Below, piece by piece: positions 4,166 through 62,492 of a stretch of 64,000 nucleotides of DNA (position 1 is its first letter; every line of letters begins with the position of its first letter). The notes under the pieces were generated by a model. That model was not told where the DNA came from, searched no databases, and was given only the letters and a program-made list of their open reading frames with translations. The DNA is taken from positions 466 to 64,465 of the forward strand of contig JBPOHA010000056.1 of NCBI GenBank assembly GCA_052036095.1. Reading direction: 5' to 3'. The position numbers and the translations under genes are program-made. This stretch comes from Bacillota bacterium. GTDB taxonomy: Bacteria > Bacillota > Clostridia > TANB77 > CAG-508.

Positions 4166-4291
4166 AATTTGGATTATTAACTTTCCTGACAAAGATGTGT
4201 TAGTAACTTCAAATGATGATTATTTTAATACTTGAATTTACTTTTACAATTCACAACCTACAATTACAAAAGTAAATATTTACAATAAGTA

Positions 4292-4320
4292 TTGCAAAAA
4301 GAAAACAGATACTGTAAAAT
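4292..4320 (+). promoter_or_regulatory. Sigma-A type promoter: TTGCAA, 17-nt spacer, TAAAAT
   Basis: Near-consensus -35/-10 with 17-nt spacing. The same 39-nt core GTATTGCAAAAAGAAAACAGATACTGTAAAAT recurs at 59042-59070, and its 5' half at 25366-25389. Confidence 0.6.
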
Positions 4321-4568
4321 AAAAATGTATTAAATCTCTATATAAAAAATATAAAGATGAAATACAACAAGAGAAAAATGATATAGAGAGGAATACAAGA
4401 AGAAAAAACAAAAGTATGCTAAAAAAGAATATAAAAAGTAAAAAGAAGTATACAATAAGCAAAATAACACAAAAAGAAAAAGCAAAAGTAGTGTAAAACA
4501 AAAAGTAAAAAGGCAGAAAAGTAAAAGAAACGAAAAGTTTAACACTAAAAATGAAAGGAGAATATCAA

Positions 4569-5768
4569 ATGAAAAGGATTATAAAAAATGTAAAAGGTAT
4601 CACATTAATAGCTCTTGTTGTAACAATAATAGTATTATTGATATTAGCAGGAGTATCAATCAATATAGCATTTAACACTGGAATAATAAGCAAATCAAAA
4701 AATGCAACAACAAAATATCAAGAAGCAACAGCAAATGAAACAAATAGCTTAAATGAAATAGAAAGTGAAGTAGATAAATTATCAAAAGGAGATAGCAACA
4801 AAATACCAACAGCAGATTTGGGAACATCAAAAAAAGCAAAAACAGTATTTACAACTAAAACAGATGTAACAGATGCATTAGGAAACAAAGCAAGAATTCC
4901 AGTAGGATTTAAGATAGCAGATGATTCAGCAGAAACAATACCAGGAGGAGTAGTAATAGAAGATGTAAGTGCTGGAGATAGCACATCAGTAGGAAATCAA
5001 TTTGTATGGATACCAGTAGGAAAAGAAATAAAAAGTGCAACAGAAACTGTAGATATAGCATTAGGAAGATATAGTTTTGATAGTAATGGAAATGCAACAG
5101 CATGTACAAATACAAGTTATGTAGAAGAAACTGCAACAGAACATAAAACAAGTGGAGATGGAAATACAATAGCAAAAGATATAGAAAAATTTAAACAAAG
5201 TGTATCAGATAATGGAGGATATTATCTAGCAAGATATGAAGCAGGAGTGACAGGATATGATTCTACAGTATCAACAGGCAATAGTAGTGGTGCAGCAAGT
5301 TGGACAGGATATGCAAATGGAAAGCTAACAATAAAATCAAATCAACAAGTATGGAATTATATAACACAAAATAAAGCAGCAGATATAGCAAGAAATATGT
5401 ATAGTGCAAATGTAACAAGTGATTTAGTAAATAGTTATGCATGGGATACAGCAATAGTATATATAGAGAAATGTGGAACAAATGCAAATTATGCAAATCA
5501 AATAGGAAAAGCAACTGATAACAATTTAGCAAATACAGGAATGACTAAATTAAAATCAACAAGTGCAATAGATGCACAATGCAATATATACGATATGGCA
5601 GGAAGTGTATATGAATGGACTACGGAGTCTGGCTCTAACACCCTCTATCGTTGCGTCATTCGTGGAGGCGTTTACTACGACAGCAACTACTTTTCGGCTA
5701 GTCGTAGCGGCGGCGATACGAGCTTTGCTTACGTAAGCATTGGTTTTCGTCCACTTTTATACTTGTAG
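4569..5768 (+). CDS. Pilin-like N-terminus plus C-terminal FGE-sulfatase (SUMF1/C-type-lectin-like) domain protein, paralog 1. The ORF track starts at 4551; the ATG at 4569 is better placed behind GGAG.
   Basis: N-terminus MKRIIKNVKG/ITLIALVVTIIVLLILAGVS resembles a class III (prepilin) signal peptide with E5 replaced by A. C-terminal motifs GRYEAG, SYAWDTA, GSVYEWT, RGGVYYD and a terminal IGFRPLLYL are typical of the FGE-sulfatase fold. Confidence 0.6.
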   Translation: MKRIIKNVKGITLIALVVTIIVLLILAGVSINIAFNTGIISKSKNATTKYQEATANETNSLNEIESEVDKLSKGDSNKIPTADLGTSKKAKTVFTTKTDVTDALGNKARIPVGFKIADDSAETIPGGVVIEDVSAGDSTSVGNQFVWIPVGKEIKSATETVDIALGRYSFDSNGNATACTNTSYVEETATEHKTSGDGNTIAKDIEKFKQSVSDNGGYYLARYEAGVTGYDSTVSTGNSSGAASWTGYANGKLTIKSNQQVWNYITQNKAADIARNMYSANVTSDLVNSYAWDTAIVYIEKCGTNANYANQIGKATDNNLANTGMTKLKSTSAIDAQCNIYDMAGSVYEWTTESGSNTLYRCVIRGGVYYDSNYFSASRSGGDTSFAYVSIGFRPLLYL

Positions 5769-6002
5769 CGCTGAGTCCTGATAATACAATATCGGGAAAT
5801 AGAATTAATAAAGAAAATCGTATGGCTTCCAAAGAGAAGAAGGTAGGAAGAGAATGAGTTCACAGCACCAAAAGATAAGAACCAGTTTAAAAAAATCACA
5901 AGATAAGCAAGAAAATTTTAATATACCTATTGACATTTTAAAAAAATAGTAATCTTAAAAATGTTATACATTTGAAATAAATAAATAAAAAAATATATAT
6001 GA

Positions 6003-6371: not shown

Positions 6372-6488
6372 TTAGCAACCTCCAAATCCAAATCCTTTGC
6401 CTCCGCCGCAGCAACAGCAGATTAATAATAATACTATTATTATACAGCAACAGTCATTGTCTCTTCCACCGCATCTATTTTCTGGCAT
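6372..6488 (-). CDS. Unannotated 38-aa Cys/Gly-rich hydrophobic peptide (MPENRCGGRDNDCCCIIIVLLLICCCCGGGKGFGFGGC)
   Basis: Manual minus-strand translation. AGGAGG lies 8 nt upstream of the ATG, on the complement of 6497-6502. It is below the 60-aa cutoff of the ORF track. TAA stop at 6372-6374. Confidence 0.55.
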   Translation of the reverse strand: MPENRCGGRDNDCCCIIIVLLLICCCCGGGKGFGFGGC

Positions 6489-6538
6489 ATAAATCCCTCC
6501 TTTCTATGGATAAAAATTATGGTTTTTGCAAATCTTAA

Positions 6539-6673
6539 TTAGCAGTTTCCATCGTTTCCACAACATGGTTGTGGTGTTGGCATACAGTCATCATGGCCAC
6601 ATCCGCATCCACAGCAGCATATCAAAACGATAAGGATAATAAACCATAACATTTCGCTGTTTGAACCTCTCAT
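6539..6673 (-). CDS. Unannotated 44-aa Cys/Gly-rich hydrophobic peptide (MRGSNSEMLWFIILIVLICCCGCGCGHDDCMPTPQPCCGNDGNC)
   Basis: Manual minus-strand translation. AGGAGG (complement of 6681-6686) lies 7 nt upstream of the ATG at 6673. Tandem with the 6372-6488 ORF, with a 50-nt spacer carrying the second SD. Confidence 0.55.
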   Translation of the reverse strand: MRGSNSEMLWFIILIVLICCCGCGCGHDDCMPTPQPCCGNDGNC

Positions 6674-6764
6674 TGCAATACCTCCTCTTAAGATTTCTAA
6701 ATCTTTTGTATGATATATACTATTCTAAATACTCATATTTGGTTACATATCTTATAAAAAATAC

Positions 6765-25080: not shown

Positions 25081-25290
25081 AAAAAAAGCCCCCATGTTGG
25101 CCGTAAGCTTAAGAATTTTAAGAGCCTGTTTACACAGGTGGGTGTCTTGTTAAATACTTATGGGCTTCTTACTAAGTAAGCATGCACGCCATATTTAAAG
25201 GCAGACTCCCTTTAATCTAAATGTTGGTTCTAAAATCTTAAACTACACGCACCACACAGGGAATAATCTTTACTGTACTTATAGAGTATC
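25081..25290. ncRNA. Candidate structured non-coding RNA: a GC-rich ORF-free island
   Basis: About 45% GC against about 25% in the flanks. No ORF longer than 20 codons on either strand. Several local hairpins (CCUGUuuacaCAGG; CUUACuaaGUAAG) and a possible long-range pairing GGGUGUCU/AGACUCCC. The minus-strand version ends GGGGGC(U)9. Confidence 0.3.
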
Positions 25291-25360: not shown

Positions 25361-25560
25361 AAAAGTATTGCAAAAAGAAAATAGATACTGGGTGCTTATG
25401 ACGGCCTTGGTTTCCGTCCAATTTTATACTTGTAGCGCTGAACCCTAATAATACAATATTTGGAAATAGAATTAAGAAAGGAAATCGTATGGCTTCAAAG
25501 AGAAGAAGGTAGGAAGCGAATGAGTTCACAGTACCAAAAGGTGATATGTTTCACACACTT
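25361..25560 (+). pseudogene. Remnant of an FGE-domain pilin-like gene cassette: promoter 5' half fused to a 16-codon C-terminal fragment (..GAYDGLGFRPILYL*) plus the conserved 3' element
   Basis: 25362-25389 matches 4288-4314 (the -35 and spacer). 25408-25557 is about 90% identical to 5745-5880. The -10 and almost all of the coding sequence are absent. Confidence 0.65.
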
Positions 25561-25565
25561 TTACA

Positions 25566-25600
25566 GGACTAGTCTTGCCGGACTAGTCCTTATTTTATTT
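25566..25600 (+). terminator. Intrinsic terminator (GGACTAGTC..GACTAGTCC + TTATTTTATTT)
   Basis: 9-bp perfect stem followed by a U-rich tract, immediately after the cassette remnant. Confidence 0.65.
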
Positions 25601-25873
25601 AAAATAAGGACTATAAGGTTATGTAAATAAGAAGGAGAACTAGAATGAAATAGAAATTTAAAGTATTCTATTTTAAAACATGTATTTACTTTTAAAATTC
25701 ACACACAATTATTTACGTTATTTTTTTAGAATTTTATGTTTATTTTTTTTCATTAATGTGTTATTATTAAAAGGAAAAATTTGCAAAATAAATATAATTA
25801 ATTTACAATAATTATAATGGCTAAAAATAATATATGCAATTAAATAAAAACATAATAAGCTAAGGAGAAAAAC

Positions 25874-29894: not shown

Positions 29895-30039
29895 ATTATT
29901 GACTTTGAAAACTCCAAATGCTAAAATGGGATACATAATAAGATATAAATTATATATATAAATAGTAGACTTTGTATATAATATAAATTATGTTGCTATA
30001 AGAAACGAAAAAATTTTATACAATGATAAGAAGAAAAAA

Positions 30040-30186
30040 AGTTAATAATAAAACAAAAATTAATAATAAAACAAAAGTTAATAATAAAACAAAAGTTAAT
30101 AATAAAACGAAAGTTAATAATAAAAGAAAAGTTAATAATAAAACGAAAGTTAATAATAAAACAAAAATTAATAAGAAAAATAAAAA
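30040..30186 (+). repeat. Seven tandem copies of a 21-bp repeat (AAAACAAAAGTTAATAATAAA)
   Basis: Direct reading. In frame with ORF 30023-30379, but the only Shine-Dalgarno (AGGAG 30190-30194) serves the ATG at 30200, so the array is probably 5' non-coding. Confidence 0.75.
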
Positions 30187-30199
30187 AATAGGAGAAAAA

Positions 30200-30415: not shown

Positions 30416-31366
30416 ATGTTCGAAGAATTAAACAAACAAATGACTGTGGACTTTTCATCATACATAGGAGAATTACATTCAAATCCATGGCAAATAGTAA
30501 CATTAGTATTGGATATCATTGCTGTAGGATTTTTAATATATGCATTTGTAAAAATAGCAAGACGTTCTAAAGTATGGCAATTAGTAAAAGGAATTGCTTT
30601 ACTAATAATAATAACTTTGATAAGTGGTTGGTTAAAATTAAGAATACTTAATTTTATATTAACATCAGTAATGACTTATGGAGTAATCGCTTTACTTGTA
30701 ATATTTCAGCCAGAATTACGTAGAGGTTTAGAGCAATTAGGATCAACAAATACAAATAAATTCTCACGAATGCTTGGAATAGATAAAAGCTTAAAGGATA
30801 GAACAAGAGAAGATATTTATAAAGTAGTAATTGCAGTAGAAGAATTAGCAAAGACAAAAACAGGAGCACTTATAGTATTTGAAAGAGATATAAAATTACA
30901 GGACATAGTAGAAACAGGAGTTGTATTAGATTCAGCAATTTCTCCACAAATATTAGTAAATATATTTGTACCAAATACACCACTTCATGATGGCGCAGTA
31001 ATAATTAGCAATAATAAAATATCATCAGCAGCTTGTATTTTACCACTTGCAGATGACAAAGATATAGCAAGAGAATTAGGTACAAGACATAGAGCAGCAA
31101 TGGGGATATCAAGAGAATCAGATGCAATAGCAGTTGTAGTATCAGAAGAAACTGGAAAAATATCAATAGCGAAAGATGGTACATTAATTGCAGATGTAAA
31201 AGATGATTCATTAAAAAGAATATTAATAAAACACTTAGTTACAGCAAGATTTGGGTCTGATGAAAAAGAAAGCAAGATAACAGAACTTAAACAAAAAATG
31301 GCTAAGAATAAAAAAGAAAAAGCAGAAAAAAATAAAGAAAAAACTGAAAATAAAGAAAAAAAATAG
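30416..31366 (+). CDS. cdaA: Diadenylate cyclase CdaA (DacA)
   Basis: Three N-terminal TM helices, then DisA_N domain motifs TGALIVFERD, LHDGAVII and GTRHRAA. No cdaR/glmM downstream. Confidence 0.9.
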   Translation: MFEELNKQMTVDFSSYIGELHSNPWQIVTLVLDIIAVGFLIYAFVKIARRSKVWQLVKGIALLIIITLISGWLKLRILNFILTSVMTYGVIALLVIFQPELRRGLEQLGSTNTNKFSRMLGIDKSLKDRTREDIYKVVIAVEELAKTKTGALIVFERDIKLQDIVETGVVLDSAISPQILVNIFVPNTPLHDGAVIISNNKISSAACILPLADDKDIARELGTRHRAAMGISRESDAIAVVVSEETGKISIAKDGTLIADVKDDSLKRILIKHLVTARFGSDEKESKITELKQKMAKNKKEKAEKNKEKTENKEKK

Positions 31367-42606: not shown

Positions 42607-42675
42607 TTAGCCGTACATGCACTTTCAAAGAAAACAAAACATATAATTAGATATATGAAAATATGGGAGGCGCAA

Positions 42676-43374
42676 ATGTTAGGTATTACTTTATCAGGTT
42701 TCTTTACATTTTTAAGTTCAGCAATATATACAGTTGGATATATATCAAATAATAGTTTATTTCCAGAAACATTAAATCAAGAAGATGAGAAAAAATACAT
42801 AGAACTAATGGAAAATGGAGATGAAGAAGCAAAGAACATTTTAATAGAACATAATTTAAGACTAGTTGCACATGTTTGCAAAAAGTATTCAAATACAAAA
42901 GCTGATCAAGATGATTTGATATCAATAGGATCAATAGGATTAATAAAAGGTATTAATAGTTATAATTCAAAAAAATCAATTAAATTATCAACATACATTT
43001 CAAGATGTATAGAAAACGAAGTACTAATGTATTTGCGTTCAACTAAGAGACAAAATACAGAAGTATACCTAGAAGATCCAATAGGAAAAGATAAAGATGA
43101 CAATACAGTAACATTAAAAGAAGTATTAGAAAATGACGATAAACCAATAGATGAAGAAATTGACTTAAAACTAAAAATTAAAAAATTATATGAAAAAATA
43201 AAAGAAATTTTAAAAGGAAGAGAAAGAACTATAATAGAGCTTAGATTTGGATTAAATGGAGAAGAACCAATGACTCAAAATCAAATAGCAAAGGGTATGG
43301 GAATATCACGTAGCTATGTTTCAAGAATTGAAACCAAGGCAATAGGAAAACTCGCAAAAGAATTTAAGGATTAA
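42676..43374 (+). CDS. sigK: Sporulation sigma factor K, pro-protein form, uninterrupted. The ATG at 42676 follows GGGAGG; an alternative ATG lies at 42655.
   Basis: Hydrophobic pro-sequence, then SNNSLFPETLNQEDEKKYIELMENGDEEAKNILIEHNLRLVAHVCKKY, ..DPIGKDKDDN.., and region 4 (GMGISRSYVSRIE) closely matching SigK. Confidence 0.85.
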   Translation: MLGITLSGFFTFLSSAIYTVGYISNNSLFPETLNQEDEKKYIELMENGDEEAKNILIEHNLRLVAHVCKKYSNTKADQDDLISIGSIGLIKGINSYNSKKSIKLSTYISRCIENEVLMYLRSTKRQNTEVYLEDPIGKDKDDNTVTLKEVLENDDKPIDEEIDLKLKIKKLYEKIKEILKGRERTIIELRFGLNGEEPMTQNQIAKGMGISRSYVSRIETKAIGKLAKEFKD

Positions 43375-43404
43375 AAAATGCTACAATAATATTTTATAAT
43401 TTTG

Positions 43405-43552
43405 GGATATTATCGATTTTAATTAAGATATTATTGTTTTTAATTAAGATATTATCGATTTTAAATTAAGATATTATTGTTTTTAATTAAGATATTATTG
43501 TTTTTAATTAAGCTATTGTTTTTAATTAAGATATTATCGATTTTAATTAATA
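43405..43552 (+). repeat. About seven tandem 20-24 bp direct repeats (TTTTAATTAAGATATTATYGWT) just downstream of sigK
   Basis: Direct reading. The units contain the TTAATTAA palindrome. Confidence 0.75.
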
Positions 43553-43734
43553 TATAGAATTTAATTTTTTATAAAATATAGATTATTTAAATTATATATG
43601 ATATACTAAGTTAAAATTTAAAGTATAACAATAGAAAAGTTTATTTTTATAAAAGATTTATGTATAATAAGATTTATAAATAATATATCTAAGAAGATTG
43701 TTAATACACATAAGCAATAGAAAGAGGTAGAAAT

Positions 43735-44196
43735 ATGAAAACAAGAGGATTTGAAGTAGCAAAAGGATTTGAAAATTCAGAGATTAATTTGCCAGTAAGA
43801 AAAACAAAATATTCAGCAGGATATGATTTTGAAGCAGCAGAAGATACAATAGTTCCAGCTTTTAAACCAGGTTGTAATCCAACATTAATAAAAACTGGAA
43901 TTAAAGCATATATGCAAGATGATGAAATGCTATGCTTATATAATAGAAGTTCTAATCCAAAGAAAAAAGGTCTAATATTAGCTAATAGTGTTGGAATAGT
44001 AGACAAAGACTATTATGGAAATGAGGATAACGACGGTGCAATTATGTTTGCATTTTATAATGTAAAAGATGTTGATGTTGAAATCAAAAAGGGTGATTGC
44101 ATTGGGCAAGGAATTTTTGAAAAATATTTAGTAGCAGATGATGATATTGCTGAAGGTGAAAGAAAAGGTGGATTTGGCTCGACAACTAATAAATAA
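43735..44196 (+). CDS. dut: dUTP diphosphatase (dUTPase)
   Basis: AGYDFEAAEDT.., RSS(NPKKKG), GIVDKDYYGNE and a C-terminal GERKGGFGSTT (motif V). Confidence 0.75.
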   Translation: MKTRGFEVAKGFENSEINLPVRKTKYSAGYDFEAAEDTIVPAFKPGCNPTLIKTGIKAYMQDDEMLCLYNRSSNPKKKGLILANSVGIVDKDYYGNEDNDGAIMFAFYNVKDVDVEIKKGDCIGQGIFEKYLVADDDIAEGERKGGFGSTTNK

Positions 44197-57752: not shown

Positions 57753-58946
57753 TTAAAATTCTTGCAGAATTTTTGCTAAATATTTCATAGCATTAATACT
57801 TTCATCTAAAGTATTTCCAGTAGCTCCAACCTCAATAATGCAAGCTGCTTTAGAAATATGTTGATTGTATTCTGAATTTCTTAGAATAATTGGCTTAAAT
57901 AATCCAGGATACATATCATTGGCTTTTTGTTGCAACTTTATAGCAAATTTAAGATTTTGATTCCAGTTAGAATTAACAGGATTAGCAACATTAGAACCAA
58001 TTACGAACATTAATTGAGATACATATTCATCTCCAATCTTTACTTTTGGAGCATAACTTTCATCTCCAATTGCATCTCTGTGCAAATCAATAATAATGTC
58101 AGTATCAGGGTTACTAGAAAGTATAGCTTTTGCTGTTTCTAAAGAGCGAGAATATGATCCATTATATGCAGGATAATCATGGTAAGTTTTATTATGATCA
58201 ACTTGAACACCATAAGATTTTAATTGATTTTCAAGTTCATCTCCAACTTTTGCTACACTAAAATTTAAATCAGTGGTTCTAAATGTACCTGTTGGTTCAT
58301 AATTATATGCATCACTTGAAGTATAGCTTTCACACGTATGTGTATGATAAATTCCTATTTTCTTTTTATTAACCTCAATATTAGGAGTGAGCATATCTTC
58401 AGTTAAAGTATAATCAGTTCCATTATTTATTTTAACTCCATAATAATCATTAGTAGATCTAGGGTTTACACTATTAGGAATAATTTCAGTTTTTACATCA
58501 GTTTGAGCTTGCTCAATTTCAGAATTACTATTGCTTAAAAGATTTGAATTATTGATATTATTAGAATTAGTGGTATCTTGAGTAATTGAACTATTCTGCA
58601 TTAAATCATAATTAGTTGAAGAATTTCCTGCGTAATTATTATAGGAAGCTAATTTTTTATAATCGATTAAATTTCCATCATTGTCTTTTATTGATTTAAC
58701 AATATTAATATCAGATAAAATACTATTTTCAAAAATAATATTAATAATATTGTTTTGAGAATTAGAAGTTGAATTATACATCGAGTTAATTTCTCCGATA
58801 CTATCATTAAAAAAATAATGCATTAAGTTAGAATTATCTCTATTCAAAAAAGAAAAAAGAAAATAAAAAATAAAGATTATAGCAATAGCAATAATTATTA
58901 AAAAAATATATTTAATTAAATCTTTTAATTTTAAAACTTGTATCAT
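57753..58946 (-). CDS. spoIIP: Stage II sporulation protein P (SpoIIP)
   Basis: N-terminal TM. GIYHTHTCESY and DLHRDA motifs of the SpoIIP amidase/endopeptidase family. Confidence 0.75.
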   Translation of the reverse strand: MIQVLKLKDLIKYIFLIIIAIAIIFIFYFLFSFLNRDNSNLMHYFFNDSIGEINSMYNSTSNSQNNIINIIFENSILSDINIVKSIKDNDGNLIDYKKLASYNNYAGNSSTNYDLMQNSSITQDTTNSNNINNSNLLSNSNSEIEQAQTDVKTEIIPNSVNPRSTNDYYGVKINNGTDYTLTEDMLTPNIEVNKKKIGIYHTHTCESYTSSDAYNYEPTGTFRTTDLNFSVAKVGDELENQLKSYGVQVDHNKTYHDYPAYNGSYSRSLETAKAILSSNPDTDIIIDLHRDAIGDESYAPKVKIGDEYVSQLMFVIGSNVANPVNSNWNQNLKFAIKLQQKANDMYPGLFKPIILRNSEYNQHISKAACIIEVGATGNTLDESINAMKYLAKILQEF

Positions 58947-59041
58947 ATAAAAAATATATTCCTAGCAACTAAAACTTATGAATAAAATTTGATACTTTAA
59001 TTAAACACATAAACTTTTTAACGCATAATTAAAAAAATGTA

Positions 59042-59070
59042 TTGCAAAAAATAAACAGATAATGTAAAAT
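59042..59070 (+). promoter_or_regulatory. Second copy of the cassette promoter (TTGCAA, 17 nt, TAAAAT)
   Basis: GTATTGCAAAAAATAAACAGATAATGTAAAAT matches the promoter at 4288-4320. Confidence 0.6.
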
Positions 59071-59210
59071 GAAAATAACTAAATCGCTAGAAAAAGATTA
59101 TAGTATAATATGTAAAAATAATCAGAATCAAAGTTAAGAAGTACAGAATAATAGAAGAAATAAAAATATGATGCAAAATATGAAAACTTAAGTTTAAGTG
59201 AGGTAAAAAG

Positions 59211-60365
59211 ATGAATCGAAAGATAGAAAAACTTTGGAAAAGAGAAAGTGGAATTACTATGATTTCACTAGTTATAACAATAATAGTTTTATTAATATTA
59301 GCATCAGTAACTATTAAGGTAACATTAAATACAGAAATAGTAGAAAAGACAAAAAATACAGCAACAGAGTATAAAGAATCTGAAAGTAACCAAACAAATC
59401 AATTGTCAAATTTAAAAGTATATATAGATGCAGATGTAGGATACACAATTAAAGCTACAACTGTCAAAGAAGCAAAGGAAGAAGGAGAATACTATAATAG
59501 TAATACAGAAATAACAGACTCAAGTACAACGCCAGCAAAAATAAAAGTTCCAGCTGGATTTAAAATAGCAAGTGATTCAGCAACAAAAGTAGCAGGAGGA
59601 GTAGTAATAGAAGACACAAATGGTAATCAATATGTATGGATACCATGTACAATAGATGGAGCAAATGGAAGCTTAAAGTATGATAGATATGACTTTCAAA
59701 AGCAAGACGGGTACTATGGTGGATATTCAGAAAATATGTCAAGTGATAATAATGAGCAAAATAGTATAAAAGATAATGGTGGCTATTACATTGGCAGATA
59801 TGAGGCTGGGATAAATTCACAAAGGACAGAATCTGGAGACAAAACAAAAATGACTATGGCTGATTTGGGAGAGGTGCTAGAAAAAAATAATCAGTTCGTA
59901 TATAATTATGTAACAATAGACCAAGCAAAGAAATTAGCAGTGGAAGTATCTAGTCATTATGATTATTCATTAATGAGTGAGTTATGCAATAGTTATGCAT
60001 GGGATACAGCATTAAAATTTATTGATGCAACAGTAGATGGATATTCAACAAATACAACACAAGGAAATTATAATAATACATCATTTACATATACAGATAT
60101 CAATGGAAATACACAAACAAAAGGAACAGGAACGTCAACTTTGATACCTACAGGAAAAACCACATCAGTATGTAATATATATGATATGGGAGGAAATACA
60201 TGGGAGTGGATAACAGAATCTTATGCAAATTCAAGTTCTAAGTATGTTTATCGTGGAGGAAGTATTGATAATAGTTTTTCAAATAATCCTGCGGGATGCA
60301 GAAGTTATGATAATAATACATGCTCTCATTATAACATTGGATTTCGAGTTACTTTATATTTATAA
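59211..60365 (+). CDS. Pilin-like N-terminus plus FGE-sulfatase domain protein, paralog 3
   Basis: N-terminus MNRKIEKLWKRESG/ITMISLVITIIVLLILASVT. Motifs GRYEAG, SYAWDTA, GNTWEWI, RGGSIDN and terminal IGFRVTLYL. A purine-rich leader as for paralog 1. Confidence 0.6.
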   Translation: MNRKIEKLWKRESGITMISLVITIIVLLILASVTIKVTLNTEIVEKTKNTATEYKESESNQTNQLSNLKVYIDADVGYTIKATTVKEAKEEGEYYNSNTEITDSSTTPAKIKVPAGFKIASDSATKVAGGVVIEDTNGNQYVWIPCTIDGANGSLKYDRYDFQKQDGYYGGYSENMSSDNNEQNSIKDNGGYYIGRYEAGINSQRTESGDKTKMTMADLGEVLEKNNQFVYNYVTIDQAKKLAVEVSSHYDYSLMSELCNSYAWDTALKFIDATVDGYSTNTTQGNYNNTSFTYTDINGNTQTKGTGTSTLIPTGKTTSVCNIYDMGGNTWEWITESYANSSSKYVYRGGSIDNSFSNNPAGCRSYDNNTCSHYNIGFRVTLYL

Positions 60366-60400
60366 TTAATAGACAATAAATTTTTATGAAAGGTAAATAA

Positions 60401-62428
60401 ATGAAGATACAACATTTAGCAGTTATTTTTGTAATAATAATACTTCCTATATCACTGGTGTTATCAATATATACAGGAAATCTTATAAAAGTTTCAAATA
60501 AGCAATCTTCGTATGACACATTATTGCTTAATTCTACTTATGATGCTGTCAGAGCATATCAAATGAATACATTAAATAACAATTATACTGGAGTTAACGA
60601 GTCAAAAATTAGAGATATAAATGCTTCAGTAAATTCATTCTTCAATAGTTTAGCTACAGGTCTTTCTTCAAGCGGATATAGTAAAGATGATTTAAGAACG
60701 TATGTCCCAGCAATGATATATACATTATATGATGGATATTATGTTTATGGATGTTATAAAAATTCAGCCTCGATTTCAAATGGAAAGCCACAGTTTTCAA
60801 CTGATGCTACTCTTAATAGAGATACTGAATATGGTCTTAAATCATATGTATATTATTCTTGCGAATATAAAAATACAGATTATGATATAATTGTTAATTA
60901 TTCACTTGATAATTATATTTCAGTATATGGCACATATACTGAAAATGGAGAAAAAAAGTTTATATCAAAATCAGGATATTATATAGCTGCAGATGGGATA
61001 ACTATTGATAATACAACAAAAACTGTAAAAAAAGATAATAGAATTGTTGCAGAACCTGAAACTTTGGGGGAATATATATCTACTACTGATAATTATTATA
61101 CAATTAGTAATAATCAAAGAATATACCATACAAAAAAGAATGATACTAAATATTATAATTATATTATTTATAATAGTGTAAAATATTATTTTGATGATTA
61201 TATTAAAACTAATCCACCTGCAAGCTACAAAACAGCTATAGGTAACCAAATTCTAAATACAAGTTTCAATAACTCATATGATGGATATCCTGTATTTAGA
61301 TTAGAAAATAATTTACGAGTATATTTAAATAAAAATGAGTTAGATTCAGTTGTTGACTATTTAAATGGAGACCAAACATGGACAACTAATGATTTGGTTA
61401 ATAATAAGGGAACTTATTTTAAAGATATAAATGCATATTATTATTACAAAAATGCAAAAGATTTCAGTGAAAAGTTATACCCAATATTAAGTCAAATAAA
61501 TATATACACATCAGATAAGCAATATAATGATGTTATTCAAACTGATACATATAAGGAAAAATATGTTACACAATTAGGAAGTGATGCAGATACGCATGTA
61601 AAAACATCTTATGATACTGGAAAAATATTTGACTATAAAGAAAGTGGAAATAATCCGGAATTAGAATCTTCATCATTTAACAACCATAGAATTGATGTAA
61701 TAGTAAGTTCTATAGAGTCTAGTCTTGTAACATCAATCAAAAATTTTAATGATTATACAGCAAGCTCATTTGAATATACAATGCCAGTTTTAAGCGAAGA
61801 TGATTGGTATACAATAGCTAACAATATGACAGTTGTTTCTTTTCTACAGGGACTTACAATAGGAAATTATAAATATTATAGCAATTATACTGTTGTTGCA
61901 AATACAAAAAACAATGAGTTCGTATCAAAAGATTCAATATATGTACAAGATGATTATGAGAAAAGTATTGGATCACCACAAGATAGCACACTTGCTGGGG
62001 CTTGGGAAAACTTGTATAAAAATAATATTTTTTCATTCTTTGGAACTCAAACTGAAGCAGAATATCATAACCCAAGATGTAATTTGTATAATACAACAAT
62101 GAATACGAGAATTAATAATTCATCATCTTCACAACAAGAAAAAATAAAAGTAGTAGGATATAAAAATACTGAATATGATAGAGTAAGTTTTACGTATCAA
62201 ATAAAAGATGGAAATACAATAGGTACAGAACAAGTGGAAAATTATTATTTGCAGCCAGGATCTAGCGGTTATGAATGTATAGTTTCGCAAGGAGAAGTAA
62301 ACACAATTACTACCGATGATTTAATTGAAGGAACAAAGAAAGTAAATAGTGAAATTAGCAAAGCATATGTTACAGCACTTGCACGTGAAAGGGCAGCGAT
62401 ATATAGATATTCAAGTAATTTAGATTAA
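60401..62428 (+). CDS. Large signal-anchored N/Y/T-rich extracytoplasmic protein, co-operonic with FGE paralog 3
   Basis: 35-nt gap after the upstream gene, N-terminal TM. 675 aa, no recognisable catalytic motif. Confidence 0.45.
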   Translation: MKIQHLAVIFVIIILPISLVLSIYTGNLIKVSNKQSSYDTLLLNSTYDAVRAYQMNTLNNNYTGVNESKIRDINASVNSFFNSLATGLSSSGYSKDDLRTYVPAMIYTLYDGYYVYGCYKNSASISNGKPQFSTDATLNRDTEYGLKSYVYYSCEYKNTDYDIIVNYSLDNYISVYGTYTENGEKKFISKSGYYIAADGITIDNTTKTVKKDNRIVAEPETLGEYISTTDNYYTISNNQRIYHTKKNDTKYYNYIIYNSVKYYFDDYIKTNPPASYKTAIGNQILNTSFNNSYDGYPVFRLENNLRVYLNKNELDSVVDYLNGDQTWTTNDLVNNKGTYFKDINAYYYYKNAKDFSEKLYPILSQINIYTSDKQYNDVIQTDTYKEKYVTQLGSDADTHVKTSYDTGKIFDYKESGNNPELESSSFNNHRIDVIVSSIESSLVTSIKNFNDYTASSFEYTMPVLSEDDWYTIANNMTVVSFLQGLTIGNYKYYSNYTVVANTKNNEFVSKDSIYVQDDYEKSIGSPQDSTLAGAWENLYKNNIFSFFGTQTEAEYHNPRCNLYNTTMNTRINNSSSSQQEKIKVVGYKNTEYDRVSFTYQIKDGNTIGTEQVENYYLQPGSSGYECIVSQGEVNTITTDDLIEGTKKVNSEISKAYVTALARERAAIYRYSSNLD

Positions 62429-62463: not shown

Positions 62464-62492
62464 TTGACAAAAGTCAAAGAAGTTAGTATAAT
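62464..62492 (+). promoter_or_regulatory. Consensus sigma-A promoter (TTGACA, 17 nt, TATAAT) for rpmF-rpmE
   Basis: Exact hexamers with a 17-nt spacer, 60 nt upstream of rpmF. Confidence 0.65.

Follow-up and report, generated by a model that had tools for sequence, protein, structure and literature searches.

The analysed DNA is a 64,000-nucleotide stretch (hereafter the window) of a Bacillota genome of the class Clostridia (GenBank assembly GCA_052036095.1, contig JBPOHA010000056.1, positions 466 to 64,465 of the forward strand). Near its end lies cassette 3, in which a promoter and a leader precede geneA, a gene for a protein with a pilin-like N-terminus and a domain of the formylglycine-generating enzyme (FGE) type; closely downstream follows geneB, which encodes a large membrane-anchored protein. 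Sequence and structure comparisons appear to place geneA among the variable proteins of diversity-generating retroelements (DGRs), with cassette 3 probably a frozen copy, and to mark geneB as an unrelated, conserved gene that would have come to lie behind geneA by rearrangement. The features of the locus, numbered from the first letter of the window, are as follows.

59028–59076, plus strand: promoter block of cassette 3, 49 nt, 84% identical to 4278–4326
59042–59047 and 59065–59070, plus strand: −35 box TTGCAA and −10 box TAAAAT, separated by a 17-nt spacer
59071–59210, plus strand: 5′ leader, 140 nt, A-rich and purine-rich, probably unstructured
59211–60365, plus strand: geneA, 384 aa, pilin-like N-terminus followed by a predicted FGE-type C-type-lectin fold; DGR variable-protein family
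59211–59303, plus strand: N-terminal module of geneA resembling a class III signal, with a basic leader (amino acids 1–13), Gly14 and then ITMISLVITIIVLLILA
60246–60362, plus strand: variable-region homologue of geneA, amino acids 346–384, YRGGSIDNSFSNNPAGCRSYDNNTCSHYNIGFRVTLYL, apparently no longer diversified
60366–60400, plus strand: geneA–geneB junction, 35 nt, with the geneB ribosome-binding site GAAAGG
60401–62428, plus strand: geneB, 675 aa, N-terminal membrane helix followed by a large β-rich ectodomain; conserved lineage protein

The order spoIIP (minus strand), geneA, geneB, rpmF, rpmE recurs at 99.8% identity in the conspecific locus L092, which was independently assembled from another sample; the arrangement is therefore real and not a misassembly.

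Family and fold of geneA

The N-terminus and the motifs that the original prediction had singled out in geneA are all located (GITMISLVITIIVLLILA at amino acid 14, GNTWEWI at 328, RGGSID at 348 and GFRVTLYL at 377), and the Pfam family FGE-sulfatase (PF03781) matches the protein above its cut-off (E 1.2e-7, 32.1 bits against 23.3). The middle of the protein is divergent, as had been proposed, with 35 of 106 residues identical to the cassette 1 protein over amino acids 201–320. The AlphaFold model is of moderate quality (pLDDT 67.9), and the PDB entries that Foldseek matches to it with significant probability are all FGE-fold proteins. Among these is the DGR variable protein TvpA (2y3c; probability 0.99 over 275 columns), together with FGE, EgtB and PvdO; Mtd stands lower in the list.

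The family has very many members, most of them from uncultured gut Clostridia; 7945 of 8000 candidates scored at E <= 1e-3. When 58 homologues are aligned, the body is well conserved, and in the last ~45 columns hypervariable positions lie between the fixed RGG, PAGxR and GFRxTLY motifs. geneA is thus a member of an already known kind of protein, the FGE/CLec (C-type-lectin) class of DGR variable, or target, proteins. Many genes of the family, and N-terminal fragments of them, lie on very short contigs (0.5–3 kb), and short N-terminal open reading frames (ORFs) are also found on long contigs (for example P0253, P0260 and P0293). Both patterns are as expected of a gene family with many copies, which would interrupt assemblies and leave behind remnants such as cassette 2.

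A diversity-generating retroelement in a relative

The related locus L009 encodes a 366-aa geneA-family protein whose N-terminus is the same, and behind its gene come a MutS_I-like ORF, bAvd and an RVT_1 reverse transcriptase. Farther downstream, beyond the reverse transcriptase, the 3′ end of the target gene is repeated over 137 nt at 86% identity, and 14 of the 19 mismatches between the two fall at adenines of this downstream (template) copy (P = 2.6e-4). Such a concentration on template adenines is the mark of a DGR; the MutS_I-like ORF is presumably the 'MSL' accessory gene of some DGRs. Diversification of the C-terminal ~40 residues by a DGR is evident in L009, and sequence signatures point to it in the genome of the window.

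Paralogous copies

Two further copies lie in the window.

4278–5874, plus strand: cassette 1, with promoter (4292–4320), leader, gene (4551/4569–5768) and 3′ element (5769–5874)
25366–25620, plus strand: cassette 2, a deletion remnant in which −35 box and spacer run straight into the last ~45 nt of the variable region of an FGE-type gene, followed by the 3′ element

No record was found that matches the cassette 1 protein exactly. Cassette 2 is 86–96% identical to 5726–5874, and its 3′ flank (25437–25620) carries two GGACTAGTCC palindromes and a hairpin that match the intergenic region between target and msl in L009 (9102–9330). A fourth cassette, L008, comes like L092 from the metagenome sample ERZ22666005; its promoter and leader are as in cassette 1, and a post-stop element lies at 2462–2560 of that locus. 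Cassette 1 and L008 have 37 of 41 residues of the N-terminal module in common, and cassette 3 shares its body with L008 (63 of 119 identical in the middle region). The paralogues are mosaic. They bear out the proposal that the cassettes are paralogous units with a common promoter, leader and N-terminal module.

Cassette 2 was also considered as a template repeat and rejected: only ~25 nt of already diversified codons are left, and, unlike a template repeat, it shares its post-stop flank with cassette 1. A search for remnants of a MutS_I-like accessory ORF behind cassette 1, cassette 2 and L008 gave none. Immediately upstream of the cassette 2 remnant is a full-length 6S RNA gene (25085–25265, minus strand; Rfam RF00013, 110 bits). 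The long intergenic region between cassette 1 and mutL holds two small Cys/Gly-rich ORFs on the minus strand (6372–6490 and 6545–6680; for example MPENRCGGRDNDCCCIIIVLLLICCCCGGGKGFGFGGC), whose putative products are reminiscent of YjcZ-like sporulation peptides.

Variable region of cassette 3

The copies differ in the base composition of their 3′ ends. The GC content of the last 135 nt against that of the gene body is 0.29/0.31 in cassette 3, 0.49/0.31 in cassette 1, 0.44/0.33 in L008, 0.48/0.35 in L009, whose variable region is bona fide, and 0.53/0.33 in L043; the adenine content of the variable region against the body is 0.33/0.45 in cassette 3 and 0.19/0.47 in cassette 1. The footprint of adenine mutagenesis, a variable region depleted in A and enriched in GC, is absent from cassette 3. 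Its scaffold codons are the AT-rich synonyms that the genome uses (GGA GGA, GGA TTT CGA GTT ACT TTA TAT TTA TAA), and the scaffold codons common to cassettes 1, 2 and L008 are GGT TTT/C CGT ... TTA TAC TTG TAG.

Cassette 1, L008, L009, L043 and L044 have the motif TAG-NN-CTGAG-NN-CTG after the stop codon, with the variant CTGAA..CTA in cassette 2, and cassettes 1, 2 and L008 have in common a post-stop 3′ element of ~100 nt that is partially matched in L009, L043 and L044. Neither motif nor element is present after the cassette 3 stop codon, where similarity to the other copies ends exactly. The motif could be the equivalent of an IMH (target-recognition) sequence, and the conserved element may be a target-recognition or 3′ untranslated region (UTR) element of this DGR lineage. 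The window holds no repeat of 60180–60420, none of 5580–5900 besides the cassette 2 remnant, and no tblastn match to the reverse transcriptase, bAvd or MutS_I-like ORF of L009.

The variable region of cassette 3 is identical in the second strain, L092. Eleven of the 15 differences between L092 and the window fall within 32 nt of geneA (59596–59627, VAGGVVIEDTNG to VAEGVVIEDKAG); this tract looks like a micro gene conversion from another paralogue, and no donor match was found among the three available copies.

Cassette 3 is probably a frozen copy, since its variable region is genomic in composition and unchanged in a second strain, the post-stop motif and element are absent, and the window lacks a reverse transcriptase, Avd and a template repeat. 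The element that recently diversified cassette 1 and L008 would lie outside the window; as both show recent diversification, this genome probably contains a DGR or did so until recently. The original prediction had read the cassettes as a modular, possibly variable surface system. The family is variable and its N-terminal module is shared, but the variation would come from a DGR acting on the C-terminal ~40 residues and not from the shuffling of divergent middle regions.

FGE-class DGR targets of the TvpA type have the same fold as geneA and the same placement of variable residues, in the C-terminal ~40 residues ending in GFRx. The N-terminus of geneA, a pilin-like signal of class III type, differs from that of TvpA, which is said to carry a lipoprotein signal. 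Cassette 3 itself departs from DGR targets in the genomic composition of its variable region and in lacking the post-stop motif and, within the window, template repeat and reverse transcriptase. No class of DGR targets is larger than that with FGE-type C-terminal variable regions (category 'b' in Wu et al. 2018, PMC5758913), and the scattering of multi-copy paralogues over the chromosome has a counterpart in the seven Treponema DGR targets (PMC5758913). An N-terminal membrane anchor joined to an extracellular binding domain, the architecture predicted for geneA, is usual in cellular DGR targets (PMC8144416).

Promoter and leader

The promoter TTGCAA-17-TAAAAT is present upstream of geneA as it is in cassette 1, within the block of 84% identity listed above. 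With up to three mismatches allowed, the 29-mer promoter (59042–59070) has one other match in the 64 kb, at 4292–4320 upstream of cassette 1, where none is expected; a partial third copy (−35 box and spacer) lies at 25366–25391 and a fourth in L008. A degenerate 32-mer has no match in 185,579 species-representative genomes. A looser 28-mer has five matches in JGI metagenomes, all in A-rich, unrelated contexts without a geneA homologue, and no new cassettes were recovered. Widespread use of the promoter before unrelated genes, the outcome that would have marked it as a generic strong promoter, was not seen in these genomes and metagenomes; that candidate has no support, with no genome match and metagenome matches that look like chance. 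Within the data searched, the promoter is cassette-specific. One of these five lies on a metagenome contig of 32% GC (L095, 517–544), where TTGCAAAAAATAAAAAGATAATGTAAAAT agrees with the cassette 3 promoter at 28 of 29 positions and precedes an unrelated 411-aa ORF by 68 nt; no other near-perfect match was found outside the species of the window.

The likeness of the two leaders, which the original prediction had also proposed, extends to composition and to a short stretch of sequence: both are purine-rich (71% in cassette 3, with 55% A, and 77% in cassette 1, against a mean of 62%, s.d. 6%, over the 140 nt upstream of plus-strand genes), and they can be aligned over the first ~30 nt only. A riboswitch or other structured leader is ruled out by comparison of the fold with shuffled sequences (minimum free energy −6.8 kcal/mol, z = +1.31; 187 of 200 shuffles fold at least as well) and by a search of Rfam with the cassette 3 leader, which found no match at E <= 1. 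The leader is probably an unstructured, A-rich 5′ UTR.

The N-terminal module

The pattern G-[IV]-T-[LM]-[VI]-x-L-V occurs in 117 of 120 geneA homologues, with ITLxALVVTIxVLLILA conserved. Gly14 is invariant and K/R at position −2 nearly so, and the basic leader followed by ~20 hydrophobic residues is a feature of pilin-type signals. At position +5, 112 of 117 homologues have Ala and geneA has Ser; the Glu5 characteristic of pilins never occurs there. The Pfam family N_methyl matches geneA below its cut-off (E 0.038, 14 bits against 21.2) and reaches E <= 1e-3 in 15 of 85 sampled carriers of the module; some database members carry a precomputed PF07963 assignment, and some are named 'type II secretion system protein' by NCBI.

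An exhaustive search finds the module on 14,442 protein-cluster representatives of very different lengths. (A word search with a 50-aa consensus gave almost exclusively short fragments at contig ends; the exhaustive search and a Pfam tally were used instead.) The payloads of the 85 sampled carriers include FGE-sulfatase, BspA-type leucine-rich repeat, GLUG, Listeria–Bacteroides repeat, Big_2 and phage tail collar domains, and most have no known domain. The recurrence of one N-terminal module around varied, adhesin-type payloads, a central claim of the original prediction, is thus seen across public data. It does not extend to the window, where both intact payloads (cassettes 1 and 3) share the FGE-type C-type-lectin fold. 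The 64 kb encode housekeeping, sporulation and germination genes, with no prepilin peptidase or pilus machinery. The module is a putative general, pilin-like anchor or export module.

The arrangement recalls modular type IV pilins. Those proteins, for example Streptococcus sanguinis PilB (PMC8179133), likewise have a short basic leader ending in Gly, an invariant hydrophobic helix of ~20 residues and a grafted module, and likewise set one N-terminal module on many adhesin-type modules, as the carriers of the geneA module do. They differ in that geneA-type proteins have Ala or Ser in place of Glu at +5 and that N_methyl stays below threshold on geneA; no pilus machinery or prepilin peptidase lies near geneA, whose processing and polymerization are putative.

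geneB and its operon

geneB is confirmed as a 675-aa signal-anchored protein, 35 nt downstream of geneA, with an N-terminal hydrophobic helix and no recognizable domain. It is rich in Tyr (11.0% against a background of 3.7%) and Asn (10.5% against 7.5%) and has no match in Pfam (including Tad_N and vWA), NCBIfam or a PDB profile search. At least 653 homologues match over the full length at 40–56% identity, all unnamed, and a relative is encoded in 335 stretches of species-representative genomes (GTDB collection). The AlphaFold2 model (pLDDT 86.7, pTM 0.85) comprises a helix of residues 2–58, a second helix and then β-rich domains; Foldseek finds no fold relative (best E 0.27 in the PDB and 0.15 in BFVD). 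Some homologues (P0017, P0023, P0014–P0016) are longer, at 983–1141 aa, and two of these carry the Listeria–Bacteroides repeat (PF09479), which suggests that the C-terminal end is surface-exposed.

The gene directly upstream of geneB was tallied in 80 species loci (L012–L091).

Conserved CpaF-type operon that ends in geneB: 64
spoIIP, same strand: 6
Assorted housekeeping genes: 8
Contig end: 2
geneA homologue: 0

The operon encodes a 634-aa ATPase, a 691-aa polytopic membrane protein and six small proteins, with geneB last (for example L001, 268–9965); the genes after it are usually spoIVB and one with a transglutaminase core. The small proteins have one N-terminal hydrophobic helix each, and several start MENASKALIIAG; none has an EY motif, so that the Flp signature G/XXXXEY is missing. 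Three more conserved ORFs upstream of the operon (L022, 67–2219) have no Pfam match. In a PDB sequence search the ATPase matches CpaF proteins only (E 1.6e-8 over 268 residues), and it matches the NCBIfam TadA family (2.9e-9) and Pfam T2SSE (23.8 bits), each below the cut-off. Searches with the 691-aa protein and the small proteins gave no family match. That the operon is spoIIIA was also considered and rejected, since SpoIIIAA gave no match and the relatives of the ATPase are of the CpaF/TadA kind. On these sequence matches we label the operon 'CpaF-type, Tad-like' and no more. In L072 (2114–4095; the complete 1.57-Mb metagenome-assembled genome OZ007016.1), the ATPase gene is split into three ORFs, by a frameshift or an assembly error.

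The tad locus has its large protein, tadG, at the end. With Tad/Flp (type IVc) loci the operon shares a CpaF-related ATPase, a large polytopic protein, small single-helix proteins and a large, helix-anchored terminal protein, and geneB resembles TadG in position and architecture; homology to TadG was not detected. The operon differs from those loci in that homology is detectable for the ATPase only, below family cut-offs, and in the missing Flp motif, and geneB has neither a Tad_N or vWA match nor a fold relative in the PDB and is detached from the operon in the sub-lineage of the window.

The junction and the spoIIP inversion

In that sub-lineage geneB lies beside rpmF with varying upstream neighbours. 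The order in the closest relatives is gerA operon (minus strand), spoIIP (plus strand), geneB, rpmF, rpmE, a MiaB-like gene and mutS. spoIIP lies on the plus strand directly upstream of geneB in L004–L007, L012, L013, L015, L016, L024 and L035, and genes for RNase R, tyrS and clpC-like and recG-like genes are the neighbours of detached geneB elsewhere. In the window, spoIIP is reversed.

57753–58946, minus strand: spoIIP, inverted relative to every relative examined and divergent from the cassette 3 promoter; Pfam SpoIIP matches the identical gene of L092

A search for flanking inverted repeats as a cause of the spoIIP inversion found only AT-rich chance pairs and no long repeat. Among the loci examined, including those of the 80 species, geneA directly precedes geneB in the window and the conspecific L092 only. 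Relatives with spoIIP upstream have a conserved promoter-like sequence, TTGAAA-17/18-TGnTATTAT, ~50 nt before geneB. Homology between window and relatives begins at the ribosome-binding site, and the end of geneA stands in place of that promoter. A perfect TATAAT (60361–60366) overlaps the geneA stop codon and is preceded, across an 18-nt spacer, by TTGGAT as a weak −35 box; no terminator-like site was found on the plus strand between 58900 and 62600.

Since the promoter of geneB has been replaced and no terminator lies between the genes, transcripts of geneB most likely arise by read-through from the cassette promoter; co-transcription of geneA and geneB is plausible, and the TATAAT at the geneA stop codon could contribute. 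Just after geneB, upstream of rpmF, is a perfect consensus sigma-70 promoter (TTGACA-17-TATAAT, 62464–62492), which would serve rpmF. The adjacency of geneA and geneB is most simply read from gene order as a species-specific operon fusion by rearrangement and not as a conserved pairing. The original prediction had cast geneB as a partner or cargo of geneA; its place in the CpaF-type operon in 64 of 80 loci, and after geneA in none, speaks against this. Homologues of geneA do occur within 10 kb downstream of geneB (L009–L011, L028, L043, L044, L046, L059, L067 and L091), not clearly above chance, given two to three copies in these 64 kb.

Interpretation

We consider it fairly probable that cassette 3 is a frozen lectin cassette of a DGR family, placed by rearrangement before the unrelated, conserved geneB. 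It would be one paralogous unit of promoter, leader and gene for a surface protein, in which the pilin-like N-terminal helix would hold geneA in the membrane or pass it through, and the FGE-type C-type-lectin domain would present a ligand-binding face made up of the last ~40 residues. In the family, a reverse transcriptase would copy the template repeat with adenine errors and the cDNA would replace the variable region; that of cassette 3 would since have drifted to genomic base composition, with loss of the post-stop motif and element. In this species only, a rearrangement would have inverted spoIIP and set cassette 3 where relatives have the geneB promoter, leaving geneB to be transcribed by read-through from the cassette promoter, possibly aided by the −10-like box at the geneA stop codon.

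Several observations weigh against this account. On the freezing of cassette 3, 64 kb of the genome are visible, and a reverse transcriptase and template repeat elsewhere in it could serve the cassette; the variable region keeps many Asn codons (AAT/AAC), as a recently template-like sequence would; and the two strains compared are 99.8% identical, which makes the unchanged variable region weak evidence. On the chance nature of the junction, geneA and geneB both have pilin-like, long N-terminal helices in their predicted models, and in about nine of the 80 species, as in DGR-bearing L009, geneA-family genes lie 2–10 kb downstream of geneB, so that linkage is possible. The Tad-like assignment of the operon comes from the ATPase, and its other proteins have no family match.

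Cassette 3 might still be diversified by a DGR whose reverse transcriptase and template lie outside the window, its low GC reflecting a variable region that at present resembles the template. This is unlikely, although it deserves some weight. Six Asn stand among its variable positions, and cassette 1 and L008 of the same species are strongly signed as recently diversified. Replacement by cDNA would homogenize the scaffold codons, and those of cassette 3 differ from those of cassettes 1, 2 and L008; the post-stop motif and 3′ element are missing, and the two strains have the same variable region. Remote targets, at distances above 100 kb from their element, are documented (Wu et al., PMC5758913), which leaves room for a remote element.

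A small but real probability attaches to a functional pair, in which the geneA lectin would be assembled on, or anchored by, the Tad-like filament system of geneB and the fusion would reflect a partnership of presenter and anchor. The 35-nt gap without a terminator, the loss of the geneB promoter, the long pilin-typical helices predicted in both proteins and the geneA homologues within 10 kb downstream of geneB in several loci are consistent with it, as is a likeness of N-termini: geneA has [KR]-G before its hydrophobic stretch, and small operon proteins begin MENASKA-LIIAG..., which can be read as K-A and a hydrophobic stretch. Yet in the 80 other species geneA never immediately precedes geneB, and the upstream neighbour of detached geneB varies freely. 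The geneA family is multi-copy (two intact genes and one remnant in 64 kb), so that chance proximity is expected; Glu5 is absent, and the ATPase, platform protein and prepilin peptidase were not found in the window.

Quite improbable is the broader proposal that the KG-ITLIALVVTIIVLLILA module is an export or assembly signal of the CpaF-type filament, on which geneA-type proteins would be DGR-diversified modular pilins or tip lectins; what speaks for it is architecture and loose proximity. If true, it would provide a counterpart, in Gram-positive bacteria, of the type V pilus tips that DGRs diversify in Bacteroides, and the fusion of geneA and geneB would be a genuine functional clue. The parallel with those pili (bioRxiv 10.1101/2024.11.15.621889) is conceptual: both concern gut bacteria, with DGRs acting there on pilus-associated adhesins, and they differ in pilus type and phylum, the link of geneA to a filament being hypothetical here.

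True FGEs have catalytic cysteines in the stretch after the RGGS motif. That geneA is such an enzyme or a related oxidase, maturing a substrate that might be geneB, is suggested by the Pfam match and by FGE, EgtB and PvdO among the fold matches, but is very improbable, as the segment after RGG is hypervariable without a conserved Cys pair across the 58 homologues, the nearest functional analogue among the matches is the non-enzymatic TvpA, and no sulfatase gene was found nearby in the window.

Other features of the window

Two tandem arrays lie elsewhere in the window. Eight ~21-nt units (GATATTATCGATTTTAATTAA-like) occupy 43385–43577, between a sigma-70-family gene (42655–43374) and a dUTPase gene (43735–44196), and about nine or ten 18-nt units (AAAGTTAATAATAAAACA) occupy 30002–30199, upstream of a cdaA-like diadenylate cyclase gene (30416–31366).

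Significance

These findings are fairly ordinary and do not overturn current understanding. Their main value is that they correct the reading of a 'modular variable surface system' to that of a DGR target family, which supplies a concrete and testable mechanism of variability. A pilin-like module without Glu5, found on more than 14,000 protein clusters with many adhesin-type domains, may be of specialist interest, as may a strongly conserved, unannotated CpaF-type operon of small-genome gut Clostridia whose terminal protein, geneB, is confidently modelled and has no relative in the PDB. Within one genome, the cassettes would offer a natural comparison of copies that are recently diversified (cassette 1 and L008), frozen (cassette 3) and deleted (cassette 2).

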